A stretch of DNA of 23,190 nucleotides from Escherichia coli (GCF_003334815.1 NZ_QOWO01000050.1); one strand, 5' to 3'. Shown: positions 3,001 to 17,402, counted from the first letter of the stretch. Notes: a model not told the origin generated them from the letters alone. Program-made: numbers and translations.

Positions 3001-3372
3001 TCAGTATCGTCTTTTGAGATTCTCAAGGTTATGGAGTAACCAGACAGAACGGACACCACTGTCGGAGATAAAAACCCCCTGTTTACGCAGCTCGTTGCTG
3101 GCCCGGTGCTGACCATGTGTCGGGAAAGCGACGGCGTAATCAACAACAGCCTGTTCAGTTGCCTCATCGGTACGGTTCTTAAGGTTAGGAGCGCGGCGAC
3201 TACGATTAATCTGCGCATCCACACCGCCTTCAGCGACCAGTTCGCGGTAACGATAAAACGTATCACGCGAAACGCCCATGATTTTACAGGCTTTTGATAC
3301 GTAGCTGAGTTCTTCAGCCAGATTGAGCAAACCGGCTTTGTGTTTGATGACGGGATTGGCAGTATGAAGCAT
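3001..3372 (-). pseudogene. ylbG: Truncated IS481-like transposase N-terminal (HTH) fragment; no integrase/DDE domain follows
   Basis: Minus-strand ORF with ATG at 3370-3372 preceded by AAGAGGTAA (the track's GTG at 3408 lies upstream of this). Translation MGVSRDTFYRYRELVAEGG...NRSRRAPNLKNRTDEATEQAVVDYAVAFPTHGQHRASNELRKQGVFISDSGVRSVW resembles the N-terminal HTH region of IS481/IS3-like transposases. The ORF stops after ~123 aa and downstream sequence is AT-rich without a recognisable catalytic domain. Confidence 0.55.
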
Positions 3373-3487
3373 GAGAGTTACCTCTTGTTTTGGATAAGGA
3401 TTCGACACTCATATCAAAACCGGTAACTCTCAACCTTTCAAGGCCATGTGTCAGATCAAGTCGCGACTAATACAAATACGTCCCTCA

Positions 3488-7271: not shown

Positions 7272-9053
7272 ATGGCAAAAATGAGAGCCGTTGACGCGGC
7301 AATGTATGTGCTGGAGAAAGAAGGTATCACTACCGCCTTCGGTGTTCCGGGAGCTGCAATCAATCCGTTCTACTCAGCGATGCGTAAGCACGGCGGTATT
7401 CGTCACATTCTGGCGCGTCATGTGGAAGGTGCTTCGCACATGGCGGAAGGTTATACCCGCGCAACGGCAGGGAATATCGGCGTATGTCTGGGGACTTCCG
7501 GTCCTGCGGGCACGGACATGATCACCGCGCTCTATTCCGCTTCTGCTGATTCCATTCCTATTCTGTGCATTACCGGCCAGGCACCGCGCGCCCGTCTGCA
7601 TAAAGAAGATTTTCAGGCCGTAGATATTGAAGCAATTGCTAAACCGGTCAGCAAAATGGCGGTTACAGTTCGTGAAGCGGCGCTGGTGCCTCGCGTGCTG
7701 CAACAGGCATTTCACCTGATGCGTTCTGGTCGTCCGGGTCCGGTACTGGTGGATTTACCGTTCGACGTTCAGGTTGCGGAAATCGAGTTTGATCCTGACA
7801 TGTACGAACCGCTGCCGGTCTACAAACCTGCTGCCAGCCGTATGCAGATCGAAAAAGCTGTAGAAATGTTAATCCAGGCCGAACGTCCGGTGATTGTTGC
7901 CGGGGGCGGGGTAATTAATGCTGACGCAGCTGCACTGTTACAACAGTTTGCTGAACTGACCAGCGTTCCGGTGATCCCAACGCTAATGGGCTGGGGCTGT
8001 ATCCCGGACGATCATGAACTGATGGCCGGGATGGTGGGTCTGCAAACCGCGCATCGTTACGGTAACGCAACGCTGCTGGCGTCTGACATGGTGTTTGGTA
8101 TCGGTAACCGTTTTGCTAACCGTCATACCGGCTCGGTAGAGAAATACACCGAAGGGCGCAAAATCGTTCATATTGATATTGAGCCGACGCAAATTGGTCG
8201 CGTGCTGTGTCCGGATCTCGGTATTGTCTCTGATGCTAAAGCGGCGCTGACACTGCTGGTTGAAGTGGCGCAGGAGATGCAAAAAGCGGGTCGTCTGCCG
8301 TGTCGTAAAGAATGGGTCGCCGACTGCCAGCAGCGTAAACGCACTTTGCTGCGCAAAACCCACTTCGACAACGTGCCGGTGAAACCGCAGCGCGTGTATG
8401 AAGAGATGAACAAAGCCTTTGGTCGCGATGTTTGTTATGTCACCACCATTGGTCTGTCACAAATCGCTGCGGCACAAATGCTGCATGTCTTTAAAGACCG
8501 CCACTGGATCAACTGTGGTCAGGCTGGTCCGTTAGGCTGGACGATTCCGGCTGCGCTAGGGGTTTGTGCCGCTGATCCGAAACGCAATGTGGTGGCGATT
8601 TCTGGCGACTTTGACTTCCAGTTCCTGATTGAAGAGTTAGCTGTTGGCGCGCAGTTCAACATTCCGTACATCCATGTGCTGGTCAACAACGCTTATCTGG
8701 GGCTGATTCGTCAGTCACAACGCGCTTTTGACATGGACTACTGCGTGCAACTCGCTTTCGAGAATATCAACTCCAGTGAAGTGAATGGCTACGGTGTTGA
8801 CCACGTAAAAGTAGCGGAAGGTTTAGGTTGTAAAGCTATTCGGGTCTTCAAACCGGAAGATATTGCGCCAGCCTTTGAACAGGCGAAAGCCTTAATGGCG
8901 CAATATCGGGTACCGGTAGTCGTGGAAGTTATTCTCGAGCGTGTGACCAATATTTCGATGGGCAGCGAACTGGATAACGTCATGGAATTTGAAGATATCG
9001 CCGATAACGCAGCGGACGCACCGACTGAAACCTGCTTCATGCACTATGAATAA
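7272..9053 (+). CDS. gcl: Glyoxylate carboligase (tartronate-semialdehyde synthase), thiamine-diphosphate dependent
   Basis: Track ORF 7182-9053 begins at an upstream alternative start inside the terminator; the real start is ATG at 7272 ([19 protein letters not shown]...) preceded by AGAGGTAGGAAT, giving 593 aa. Confidence 0.92.
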
Positions 9054-9065
9054 GGGAGATAAATA

Positions 9066-9842
9066 ATGTTACGTTTCTCTGCTAATTTATCGATGTTATT
9101 TGGAGAATATGATTTTCTCGCCCGTTTTGAGAAAGCTGCGCAGTGTGGTTTTCGCGGCGTTGAATTTATGTTTCCTTATGACTACGACATTGAAGAATTA
9201 AAACATGTGCTGGCGAGTAATAAACTCGAACATACGCTGCACAATTTACCGGCGGGTGACTGGGCGGCGGGGGAGCGCGGTATTGCCTGTATTCCTGGCC
9301 GTGAAGAAGAGTTTCGGGATGGCGTAGCAGCAGCGATTCGTTATGCCCGTGCGCTGGGTAATAAAAAAATTAACTGTCTGGTCGGTAAAACGCCGGCTGG
9401 TTTCAGCAGTGAACAGATTCACGCAACGCTTGTAGAAAACCTGCGTTATGCCGCGAATATGCTGATGAAAGAAGATATTTTATTACTGATTGAACCTATT
9501 AACCATTTTGATATTCCTGGTTTCCATCTCACCGGAACTCGGCAGGCGCTGAAATTGATTGATGATGTTGGTTGCTGCAATTTGAAAATTCAGTATGACA
9601 TTTATCATATGCAGCGGATGGAAGGTGAATTAACCAACACCATGACTCAGTGGGCTGATAAAATTGGTCACCTGCAAATTGCCGATAATCCGCATCGCGG
9701 CGAACCGGGAACCGGAGAAATTAATTATGATTATCTCTTTAAGGTAATCGAAAATTCTGACTACAACGGTTGGGTTGGGTGTGAATATAAACCCCAAACC
9801 ACCACGGAAGCCGGTTTACGCTGGATGGATCCGTACCGTTAA
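9066..9842 (+). CDS. hyi: Hydroxypyruvate isomerase
   Basis: 258-aa ORF 12 nt after gcl with RBS GGGAGA; sequence matches Hyi (xylose-isomerase-like TIM barrel family). Confidence 0.9.
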   Translation: MLRFSANLSMLFGEYDFLARFEKAAQCGFRGVEFMFPYDYDIEELKHVLASNKLEHTLHNLPAGDWAAGERGIACIPGREEEFRDGVAAAIRYARALGNKKINCLVGKTPAGFSSEQIHATLVENLRYAANMLMKEDILLLIEPINHFDIPGFHLTGTRQALKLIDDVGCCNLKIQYDIYHMQRMEGELTNTMTQWADKIGHLQIADNPHRGEPGTGEINYDYLFKVIENSDYNGWVGCEYKPQTTTEAGLRWMDPYR

Positions 9843-9941
9843 AACGTAACGCTATTCAGACAATGCTTTTTTAGGCCGCTAAGTTGGCAGGGGATCGTGT
9901 TGTCTGAATTCAGGAAAAGCGAAATTTAAAAGAGGTTAATT

Positions 9942-10820
9942 ATGAAACTGGGATTTATTGGCTTAGGCATTATGGGTACACCGATGGCCATTAATCTGGC
10001 GCGTGCCGGTCATCAATTACATGTCACGACCATTGGACCGGTTGCTGATGAATTACTGTCACTGGGTGCCGTCAGTGTTGAAACTGCTCGCCAGGTAACG
10101 GAAGCATCGGACATCATTTTTATTATGGTGCCGGACACACCTCAGGTTGAAGAAGTTCTGTTCGGTGAAAATGGTTGTACCAAAGCCTCGCTGAAGGGCA
10201 AAACCATTGTTGATATGAGCTCCATTTCCCCGATTGAAACTAAGCGTTTCGCTCGTCAGGTGAATGAACTGGGCGGCGATTATCTCGATGCGCCAGTCTC
10301 CGGCGGTGAAATCGGTGCGCGTGAAGGGACGTTGTCGATTATGGTTGGCGGTGATGAAGCGGTATTTGAACGTGTTAAACCGCTGTTTGAACTGCTCGGT
10401 AAAAATATCACCCTCGTGGGCGGTAACGGCGATGGTCAAACCTGCAAAGTGGCAAATCAGATTATCGTGGCGCTCAATATTGAAGCGGTTTCTGAAGCCC
10501 TGCTATTTGCTTCAAAAGCCGGTGCGGACCCGGTACGTGTGCGCCAGGCGCTGATGGGCGGCTTTGCTTCCTCACGTATTCTGGAAGTTCATGGCGAGCG
10601 TATGATTAAACGCACCTTTAATCCGGGCTTCAAAATCGCTCTGCACCAGAAAGATCTCAACCTGGCACTGCAAAGTGCGAAAGCACTTGCGCTGAACCTG
10701 CCAAACACTGCGACCTGCCAGGAGTTATTTAATACCTGTGCGGCAAACGGTGGCAGCCAGTTGGATCACTCTGCGTTAGTGCAGGCGCTGGAATTAATGG
10801 CTAACCATAAACTGGCCTGA
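9942..10820 (+). CDS. glxR: Tartronate semialdehyde reductase (NAD-dependent 3-hydroxyacid dehydrogenase family)
   Basis: 292-aa ORF with an N-terminal Rossmann motif GFIGLGIMGTPMA; RBS AAGAGG; matches GlxR. Confidence 0.9.
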   Translation: MKLGFIGLGIMGTPMAINLARAGHQLHVTTIGPVADELLSLGAVSVETARQVTEASDIIFIMVPDTPQVEEVLFGENGCTKASLKGKTIVDMSSISPIETKRFARQVNELGGDYLDAPVSGGEIGAREGTLSIMVGGDEAVFERVKPLFELLGKNITLVGGNGDGQTCKVANQIIVALNIEAVSEALLFASKAGADPVRVRQALMGGFASSRILEVHGERMIKRTFNPGFKIALHQKDLNLALQSAKALALNLPNTATCQELFNTCAANGGSQLDHSALVQALELMANHKLA

Positions 10821-10988
10821 TACCCGCAATAAAAATGGCCGATATCAGAAAATGAATCGGCCAGCAATATTAAAAAAGAAAGCAGCCAAAGATGTTGCTT
10901 CAGTATTAAAAATAATATTTTTATTTTATTTGTTCCTCATAGCTAGATTAAAACAACGTTATTCGATACGTGAAATTAAGAGGGATTT

Positions 10989-16407: not shown

Positions 16408-16539
16408 ATGCGATTTATATCGCATAAGAGTGCAGTACTCATGCCGGATGCGGCATGAGTACCATATCCTTCCTGAAAATCGCGCAAATTCTATATATTG
16501 CAGAGATCATGTAGGCCTGATAAGCGAAGCGCATCAGGC
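16408..16539. repeat. Cluster of REP/BIME-like palindromic units in the glxK-allE convergent intergenic region
   Basis: Three palindromes by eye: ATGCGAT-TTAT-ATCGCAT (about 16408-16425); a perfect 12-bp stem GTACTCATGCCG-GATG-CGGCATGAGTAC (about 16435-16462) containing the REP-like core GCCGGATGCGGC; and GTAGGCCTGATAAGCGAAGCGCATCAGGC (16511-16539), a classical REP consensus in reverse orientation. Confidence 0.6.
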
Positions 16540-16547
16540 AATGTTAC

Positions 16548-16574
16548 AAAAAAAGCCACGGTATAAACCGTGGC
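16548..16574 (-). terminator. Rho-independent terminator for the allE-allC-allD transcript (minus strand)
   Basis: On the minus strand, hairpin GCCACGG-TTTATA-CCGTGGC is followed by seven T (plus strand shows AAAAAAA then the stem). It lies ~45 nt downstream of the allE stop. Confidence 0.6.
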
Positions 16575-16616
16575 AAAATCCAACATAGCTAAAAATAATC
16601 AGGCGAGTGGTATGAC

Positions 16617-17402
16617 TTAAATCTCTACGTCGCGGTTACAATCTTTCGAGTAAATATAGCTGAACGCTTCACCACGCCCTACACCATAACCAGCCTGTAA
16701 AGAATAAGCGCCCATAAAGATGTAATCGCCTTTTTTCACCGGGATCCAGTTATTGTCGAGGTTATAAACCCCCTGACCGGAAAGAATATAGGCACCGTGT
16801 TCCTGAACGTGTGTTTCGATATAACCGTGGCTGGCACCTGGTGCAAAAGAGAGGATATGCATGTTCATATCAAAACCTAACTCTTTGGGCAGAAAATCCA
16901 GCAGAATAACATCGTCCATGCCTTCATAATGAATGCGTTCCAGTTCGCTGGCATTGCCAGAAACCAGCCACGGTGCATAGCCTTCTACCGGAACATAGCG
17001 GCGCTTATATAAAAAGATTTGGCTGTCTTCGGCCTGGGCGTTAACAAACGTCATTAAGGAGCCTGGCGGGCAATAAAGATAGCCACCTTCGCTTAAGGCA
17101 AATGTTTTGCCTTCGGCTTTGGCAGTGATATTTCCAGAGATCACATACAGGAACGTTTCAATGCCTTCGCCACCGAAGCCCTGTTGGTTGCCACCGTTTT
17201 GATGCAGTGTGACCAGATAATCAACAAAAGAGGCACCCAGCTTTGGCGTGGAGAGGATTGTCGCGTCACAATTTTCAAAGCCCGGAATAATATTTTTTAC
17301 CAGACCATCCGGGGTTAACAGTGCGAAATTACCGTGTTTAACAATCGCACGGTTAGCCAGTAAATCTTCGCGGTAACCGGTGACGTTATTTAAATATCCC
17401 AT
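16617..17402 (-). CDS. allE: (S)-ureidoglycine aminohydrolase (bicupin)
   Basis: 261-aa ORF with ATG at 17400-17402; sequence matches YlbA/AllE; operon with allC and allD. Confidence 0.88.
   Translation of the reverse strand: MGYLNNVTGYREDLLANRAIVKHGNFALLTPDGLVKNIIPGFENCDATILSTPKLGASFVDYLVTLHQNGGNQQGFGGEGIETFLYVISGNITAKAEGKTFALSEGGYLYCPPGSLMTFVNAQAEDSQIFLYKRRYVPVEGYAPWLVSGNASELERIHYEGMDDVILLDFLPKELGFDMNMHILSFAPGASHGYIETHVQEHGAYILSGQGVYNLDNNWIPVKKGDYIFMGAYSLQAGYGVGRGEAFSYIYSKDCNRDVEI

Follow-up and report, generated by a model that had tools for sequence, protein, structure and literature searches.

A conserved intercistronic RNA hairpin between hyi and glxR in Enterobacterales, with a near-invariant tandem U.G block

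Intercistronic hairpins that stabilize part of a polycistronic message are known from several bacterial operons, including the REP/BIME elements of malE-malF, the iscR-iscS structure and the structure associated with papB-papA processing. If the A/U-rich RNA that follows a stem-loop between operon genes is cut, the stem-loop could protect the RNA upstream of it against 3' exonucleases, with discoordinate expression from one promoter as the outcome. RNase III processing hairpins, such as those of the rpsO-pnp leader, the rnc leader and the phage T7 R1.1 type, are imperfect hairpins of about two turns with a small internal loop at the center. In fourU RNA thermometers, for example that of Salmonella agsA, a run of U residues is paired to a G-rich sequence that resembles a Shine-Dalgarno (SD) element. 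Riboswitches and protein-binding leaders collected in Rfam typically have a conserved stem, a loop or wobble block with invariant nucleotides, a variable apical stem and a metabolic gene downstream.

The RNA element described here, located between hyi and glxR of Escherichia coli, shares features with each of these systems. Like the RNase III processing hairpins, it is imperfect, extends over roughly two helical turns, has a small central internal loop and lies between cistrons of one transcript. However, it shares no sequence with known RNase III substrates, and its UUU/GGG block is not a described determinant for that enzyme. As a stem-loop between operon genes it is also comparable to the stabilizer hairpins. 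Unlike REP elements, it is present in a single copy in E. coli, lacks the REP consensus and is rich in A/U and G.U rather than GC; unlike mobile REPs, it keeps its sequence and architecture at a single orthologous position in different genera. Its single-copy status also means that it is not a repeat element. As in the fourU thermometers, a U-run pairs with an SD-like sequence (GGGGA, positions 9890-9894) through weak A-U and G.U pairs, but this sequence is not the SD of glxR, which lies ~40 nt downstream. The hairpin has the conserved stem, the invariant block, the variable apical stem and the downstream metabolic gene of the Rfam leaders, yet it matches no family, has few conserved nucleotides and has no evident expression platform. 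Intrinsic (Rho-independent) terminators and attenuators likewise form hairpins in transcribed spacers, whereas this stem is long and imperfect, and no U-run follows it. In the literature searched, no description of the hyi-glxR hairpin was found. The element is of a familiar kind, a conserved intercistronic mRNA hairpin, with an unusual near-invariant tandem U.G block.

The window, which is the whole 23,190-nt stretch of E. coli DNA that was analyzed, carries the allantoin/glyoxylate cluster; the identical stretch in RefSeq is annotated with allR, gcl, hyi, glxR, allW and allB. Between the end of the hyi open reading frame (ORF) at 9842 and the start of glxR at 9942 lies a spacer of 99 nt (9843-9941). 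The original prediction regarded this spacer as unusually long and put the other gaps of the operon at 12-60 nt. The length is correct, and gaps of 12, 59, 50 and 15 nt agree with that range. However, if the doubtful ORF ybbV is ignored, the glxR-allW spacer measures 168 nt, so the hyi-glxR spacer is not the longest in the operon. The genes from gcl to glxK have been treated as a single operon with control at the gcl promoter (PMC12535856, PMC10163214). The operon is nearly silent in published standard conditions (TPM of ~2-10 in Salmonella TIER-seq tables).

A repeat search recovered the perfect 10-nt inverted repeat from which the analysis started: ATTCAGACAA at 9854-9863 and TTGTCTGAAT at 9900-9909 are 100% complementary and 36 nt apart. 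Perfect inverted repeats of at least 10 bp arose in 47 of 20,000 shuffles of the spacer (p ~0.002). The whole 23-kb window contains 10 such k-mer matches at 5 places, compared with a mean of 1.6 in dinucleotide shuffles. When the spacer RNA was folded, the + strand reached -26 kcal/mol (z = -2.8), and none of 200 shuffles was as stable. The repeat proved to be the core of a larger sense-strand hairpin, which the original prediction had missed, that spans 9854-9909 (~55 nt) with ~21 bp in total. The fold is a single long imperfect hairpin consisting of P1, a 2x2 internal loop, a UUUU/GGGA segment, a second small loop and P2, and it is retained in both the minimum free energy (MFE) and the centroid structure of a 301-nt context. 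With G.U pairs admitted, the repeat stem grows to a 13-bp P1 (9854-9866 with 9897-9909), in which two pairs are G.U. The features are as follows.

9840-9842, + strand: hyi stop codon (TAA); the base of the hairpin begins 11 nt downstream.
9850-9853, + strand: 5' strand (CGCU) of P0, an optional 4-bp basal helix in the spacer MFE, pairing with 9918-9921 across an 8-nt bulge.
9854-9866, + strand: 5' arm of P1, AUUCAGACAAUGC, of which the first 10 nt are the left repeat (repeat search, fold and covariation).
9867-9872, + strand: U-tract (UUUUUU) facing GGGGA, with predicted U.G wobble pairs.
9875-9888, + strand: P2, the apical hairpin (GCCG, loop CUAAGU, UGGC), predicted by folding and paired in orthologs.
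9890-9894, + strand: GGGGA block directly 3' of P2, in alignment columns that are invariant or at least 90% conserved.
9897-9909, + strand: 3' arm of P1, GUGUUGUCUGAAU, of which the last 10 nt are the right repeat; the consensus elsewhere is CUGUUGCCUGAAU.
9910-9931, + strand: A-rich linker from the hairpin to the glxR ribosome-binding site, predicted to be unstructured except for the 4-nt 3' strand of P0.
9918-9921, + strand: 3' strand (AGCG) of P0, within the A-rich linker.
9932-9944, + strand: glxR SD (GAGG, 9932-9935) and start codon (9942-9944), from sequence and ORF annotation.

In E. coli, the hairpin is therefore located 11 nt past the hyi stop codon and 32 nt ahead of the glxR start codon. 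Salmonella and Klebsiella have basal extensions that are analogous to P0 but not homologous to it. Folding the spacer alone leaves the glxR SD unpaired in the MFE, as does the centroid of the 301-nt context, and in the 301-nt MFE it is partly paired. It had been noted from the outset that the element is not a classical terminator, and this view is supported: the stem is followed by GAAUUCAGGAAAAG and not by a U-run, and a terminator scan found no sites in 9500-10300. The suggestion of a partial attenuator fares less well, with neither a terminator nor a consistent alternative pairing with the ribosome-binding site in evidence.

Orthologous hyi-glxR junctions were collected by a genome scan with Hyi, from Hyi homologs and their contigs, from E. 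coli genomes and from metagenomes; the metagenome scan was anchored on the glxR start codon region and not on the hairpin. One protein (P0004), from a frameshifted assembly, was left out of the comparison. Spacers of 80-101 nt with the same hairpin were found as 18 distinct Enterobacterales sequences, and metagenomes and E. coli provided extra alleles. These spacers come from E. coli, Citrobacter, Salmonella, Klebsiella, an Enterobacter-like lineage, Scandinavium, Superficieibacter, RIT691, Izhakiella, Buttiauxella, Budvicia (in a divergent form) and further lineages; in all, ~20 Enterobacterales lineages share the architecture. It appears in the full-spacer MFE of every ortholog except the divergent sequences L103 and L102, and in L103 when the hairpin segment is folded alone. 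The distance from the hyi stop codon to P1 is ~9-14 nt in most orthologs and as little as ~6-8 nt in Scandinavium (L095), and the distance from the hairpin to the glxR start codon is 17-33 nt.

Serratia silvae has a hyi-glxR spacer of 10 nt and no hairpin, and the structure was not found in ~75 hyi loci outside Enterobacterales. The 67 such loci with glxR directly downstream have a median spacer of 34 nt and gave no matches to a covariance model of the hairpin. With the same model, the window and each orthologous locus yielded a single copy, and a 141-nt query matched E. coli genomes at a median of 1 place (maximum 2). Identity of the spacer between E. coli and other genera is 54-72%, compared with 33-54% at four-fold degenerate sites of hyi and glxR. 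Lack of conservation in orthologous loci had been named as an observation that would count against the repeat; instead, the hairpin is retained in these loci through compensatory substitutions.

Several variants of the junction occur within E. coli. A divergent hyi-glxR allele (L104/L108), 80-90% identical, is carried by ~110 genomes; its P1 is identical, and its middle portion and P2 are re-shaped and fully paired (UUUUUUGCCG/CGGCAGGGGA). In strain E4, an IS1 element is inserted just downstream of the spacer (~720-1417 of L004), and glxR is annotated as a pseudogene. A few genomes (H12, H52) match the junction only in part.

The pattern of substitution in the orthologs is that of a base-paired RNA. 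In a structure-blind MAFFT alignment of 18 spacers, the 13 pairs of P1 are formed in 80% of cases, versus 31-47% for slid partners; 7 of the 13 change on both sides, and the covariation score was reached by none of 500 shuffles. An alignment fitted to the covariance model (A4), which for that reason leans towards the model, has 25 sequences and 23 pairs and gives 84.5% paired, versus 38-53% in controls. In it, 9 pairs and 37 cells are changed on both sides, and again none of 500 shuffles reached the score. Cell counts of this kind overstate the number of independent events, because the aligned sequences are related and several are alleles from E. coli or Klebsiella.

The changes themselves form recognizable series. 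The E. coli version of P1, CAGACAA/UUGUCUG, corresponds to CAGGCAA/UUGCCUG in most genera, to UUGGGCA/UGCCCAA in Klebsiella and Izhakiella, and to CCGGCAG/CUGCCCGG in L094; G.U intermediates are found in L103 and in one E. coli allele, L106. For P2, different genera share no sequence, yet pairing is always preserved in the 21 sequences listed, as illustrated by UUCCA/UGGAA, UCCGC/GCGGA, UGCCCA/UGGGCA, UAUCC/GGAUA and UUCACA/UGUGAA. In Klebsiella-like metagenome variants, an apical insertion of 22 nt merely lengthens the stem, and single-nucleotide alleles of E. coli alter stem positions solely to wobble or better pairs.

These data also bear on the strand. The + strand is more stable than the - strand by a mean of 6 kcal/mol, although z-scores are alike on both. 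A function of the minus strand was considered and rejected: the similar z-scores leave thermodynamics undecided, and the balance of wobble pairs favors the + strand. Specifically, P1 cells hold 31 G.U or U.G combinations versus 7 A.C or C.A, which indicates that the mRNA (+) strand is the functional one. Because three consecutive U.G pairs and the G.U excess in P1 work only on the + strand, the conserved entity is an RNA structure and not a DNA operator. Comparative sequence evidence thus indicates that the hyi-glxR hairpin is a cis-acting structure under selection as RNA. An mRNA processing or stability structure had been among the possibilities listed for the repeat. Its RNA-structure component is borne out by the compensatory substitutions and by G.U pairs that form on the mRNA strand only, and a post-transcriptional role is proposed below from the form of the hairpin.

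No nucleotide feature of the hairpin is better conserved than the GGG immediately 3' to P2. U.G is kept at three consecutive positions in 18-23 of the 25 sequences and is never replaced there by C-G or U-A. The GGG persists even in Buttiauxella, L101 and Budvicia, where it faces an A-rich strand and is not predicted to pair. Because GGG is retained where it cannot pair, a purely structural helix is not a sufficient explanation. Judging from the alignments, the near-invariant GGG points to a deliberately weak helix center or to sequence-specific recognition. A bolder proposal is that the UUU/GGG block, beside a P2 that is free in sequence, forms a receptor for a protein, a small RNA or a pathway metabolite and represents a new class of cis-regulatory RNA; we consider this improbable. 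If it were a metabolite receptor, the candidate ligands would presumably be metabolites of the glyoxylate/tartronate-semialdehyde pathway. If the proposal is correct, then glxR and the downstream allantoin genes would be under signal-dependent post-transcriptional control, within an operon thought to be regulated at its promoter only, by AllR with a reported input from RutR.

The explanation that we prefer, with a probability that we place a little short of even, is that the hairpin acts after transcription as an intercistronic processing or stability determinant, a function suggested by its anatomy. The inverted repeat makes up the outer stem of this hairpin, which is carried on the polycistronic message gcl-hyi-glxR-allW-allB-...-glxK. 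The likeliest route would be endonucleolytic cleavage, with RNase III cutting inside the stem or RNase E cutting the A/U-rich single-stranded RNA at its 3' base. Such a cut would separate a gcl-hyi message from a message for glxR and downstream genes, and in the case of RNase E the protective hairpin would cap the 3' end of the gcl-hyi part. Although transcribed from one shared, AllR-controlled promoter, the parts could in this way differ in half-life and in translation yield. Because the literature considers only control at the promoter, there is room for post-transcriptional tuning of this kind.

The dimensions of the hairpin are consistent with cleavage by RNase III. Across 25 orthologs, the helix has a median of 21 bp (range 17-28) and an arm length of ~24.5 nt, or about two helical turns, and thus has the size of an RNase III substrate, for which ~20-22 bp of roughly coaxial double-stranded RNA are expected. 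By position, the internal loop and the wobble block would lie at the helix center, where a symmetric RNase III dimer would cut. The sequence GA↓AUU at the stem base (GA↓AUUC) resembles the preference of RNase E, R-N↓W-U-U. For RNase III, ~22 bp fit into the binding valley of the enzyme, and sites mapped in vivo are overrepresented in the intergenic portions of transcripts (PMC6212723). In the portion of the Gordon 2017 supplement consulted, the spacer is not among the RNase III sites, and the operon is barely expressed in datasets of this kind. It is also not among the Term-seq 3' ends of Adams 2021, again with the operon barely expressed under standard conditions. Because of this low expression, published RNA-end datasets are nearly blind at the spacer. 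Other considerations also weigh against a processing function. It is not obvious why a plain substrate for a nuclease, or a barrier to exonucleases, should require an invariant GGG opposite U residues, and physiology offers no clear reason for uncoupling hyi from glxR.

The main alternative, which seems to us possible but rather unlikely, is that the hairpin controls translation of glxR and maybe of later genes. In one version, UUU/GGG would be a specific binding site for a trans-acting factor, which may be a small molecule, a small RNA or a protein such as CsrA; in another, the hairpin would be a structural insulator or standby platform, so that the A-rich ribosome-binding site of glxR stays open independently of hyi translation. 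The near invariance of GGG, even where it is predicted to be unpaired, fits recognition by a factor, as do the three U.G pairs that never become C-G or U-A, which would be unusual in a merely structural helix. P2 tolerates any sequence and even a 22-nt insertion, in the manner of the variable peripheral stems of functional RNA motifs, and only 17-33 nt separate the hairpin from the start codon. In addition, the first 20 nt of glxR (9942-9961, ATGAAACTGGGATTTATTGG) are identical in 12 of 17 lineages despite saturation at synonymous positions, with ~40-54% identity at four-fold sites of glxR, which suggests that the initiation region of glxR is constrained at the nucleotide or RNA level. GGA-containing motifs, found within and after the hairpin in many species, would suit CsrA; however, several orthologs carry GGGU or GGGC in place of GGA, and the CsrA CLIP supplements searched have no entry for gcl, hyi or glxR, at low expression of the operon. 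When parts of the hairpin were blocked in partition-function models of nine sequences, the accessibility of the ribosome-binding site changed in directions that were inconsistent between species, which gives no support to a simple conserved switch that sequesters the SD. Beyond GGG and the P1 arms, few nucleotides are conserved, which leaves little for a ligand pocket, and a cmscan against Rfam 15 gave no match on the hairpin in any of six genera (E-values up to 10 in E. coli and up to 5 in the five others).

The remaining explanations are less probable still. The suggestion that the repeat is an operator for an internal glxR promoter found no support, in that there is no sigma70-like site, no sigma54 match or peak and no RutR box, and the substitution pattern is of the RNA type; a DNA-level operator or internal promoter for glxR-allW-allB is in our estimate very improbable. 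Its most developed form is a sigma54-type promoter with GG (in GGG) and GC (in TTGCC) 12 nt apart. The GG-N10-GC spacing, read by eye, recurs unchanged in most orthologs; the pathway has a role in nitrogen scavenging, and a sigma54 binding site lies nearby, inside gcl (IS03, PMC4591121). However, a hand count against the consensus TGGCAC-N5-TTGCW in the GGG..TTGC register gives only 5 of 11 positions in E. coli, and 7-9 of 11 in those orthologs whose top scan match falls in this register. A scan allowing up to 3 mismatches returned 121 matches in the window, which is equal to chance, with none in the hyi-glxR spacer. Genome-wide sigma54 ChIP-seq in E. coli detects the gcl site and nothing at hyi-glxR (PMC4591121), and the main text of a paper on the Salmonella sigma54 regulon has nothing on this junction. 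The scan for sigma70 promoter-like sites found none in 9500-10300. The sequence of the 3' arm is more conserved than a plain stem requires, as a DNA site might predict, but compensatory changes together with the 31:7 excess of G.U over A.C are the mark of selection on one RNA strand, which a DNA site leaves unexplained. Nor is the arrangement that of a symmetric DNA operator, given arms 36 nt apart and strand-asymmetric substitutions. That the hairpin instead hides a short upstream ORF coupled to glxR, with GGGGA as its SD, a UUG in the 3' arm as its start and a fourU-like pairing of the U-tract with GGGA, strikes us as extremely unlikely. A UUG ORF of 15 codons whose UGA overlaps the glxR AUG is indeed present in Salmonella, Superficieibacter and the related L099, and hand translation gives the same 15-codon ORF in Citrobacter werkmanii. 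Across lineages the ORF varies from 3 to more than 15 codons, ends 29 nt before glxR, at its start or inside it, in differing frames, and begins with CUG in one lineage; no peptide is conserved, and both its SD and its start lie within the helices of highest stability. To a functionless chance palindrome or decaying remnant of a repeat element we assign almost no probability. Perfect 10-bp inverted repeats do occur at 5 places in the window, and the one in gcl is not kept by compensatory changes elsewhere, but the p value of ~0.002 for the spacer, compensatory conservation across families, conservation of the spacer above that of synonymous sites and the single-copy status of the hairpin all speak against chance, which the sequence comparisons have effectively refuted.

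Some specific candidates for interacting factors were also rejected. The window has just two matches with 3 mismatches to the RutR operator (TTGACCAnnTGGTCAA box), at 17209 and 17456, with none in the spacer. AllR-like half sites (TTCCA/TGGAA) occur in P2 of Citrobacter and Salmonella, and not in E. coli, the Enterobacter-like lineage or others. Pairing of the arms with Spot 42 or GcvB was judged by eye, and a 7-nt match to Spot 42 is limited to the E. coli allele.

Other elements were observed in the neighborhood. A GC-rich hairpin (GGCCGAU...AUCGGCC, 10838-10863) is found ~17 nt downstream of the glxR stop codon. GC-rich hairpins of unrelated sequence occupy a similar place in most glxR 3' flanks examined (Salmonella, Klebsiella, L094-L096, L098, L099 and L103), and that of Klebsiella has a U-run. 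Conserved hairpins thus flank glxR on both sides, and an ancestral unit may have consisted of the three genes gcl-hyi-glxR. Within the 168-nt glxR-allW spacer, a block at ~10925-10975 upstream of allW, TTGTTCC(T/G)CATAGCTA...CGTTATT(C)CGATACGTGAAA, is conserved across genera; it could be an internal promoter, an operator or an RNA motif for allW-allB.

Upstream, the sequence GCGGCACAAATGCTGCA at 8469-8485 inside gcl is the intragenic sigma54 binding site IS03 detected by ChIP-seq (PMC4591121). A Term-seq 3' end at 535744(+), classed as 'primary gcl / internal hyi' (Adams 2021, supplement file 2), maps to ~9098 at the start of hyi. By approximate coordinate conversion, this end lies ~45 nt beyond the gcl stop codon, and no convincing terminator is present there. 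The gcl gene also contains a 12-bp perfect inverted repeat (8859-8870 and 8896-8907) that is kept in Salmonella and is not kept compensatorily in Citrobacter, Klebsiella and others; to judge from this pattern, it is probably due to chance or codon usage. Two more perfect inverted repeats, of 10-11 bp with 40-47-nt loops, are located at 2347-2413 and 3372-3433. Downstream of glxK, a REP-like 12-bp hairpin (GTACTCATGCCGGATGCGGCATGAGTAC, 16435-16464) is followed by two Rfam small RNA matches (16476-16518 and 16544-16610), to ES036/CssrF and STnc480, both above the gathering score.

The gcl operon is described as a single transcription unit that is controlled at its promoter by AllR, with input from RutR. 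A selected hairpin between its second and third genes implies an extra post-transcriptional layer, which may consist of differential mRNA processing or stability or of control of glxR translation. The gcl-hyi-glxR module is widely transferred and over-expressed for assimilation of ethylene glycol and glyoxylate, and keeping or removing the spacer may alter the enzyme ratios obtained from it. More broadly, the hairpin offers a clean, testable case of a conserved intercistronic RNA structure with an unusual, near-invariant tandem U.G block.
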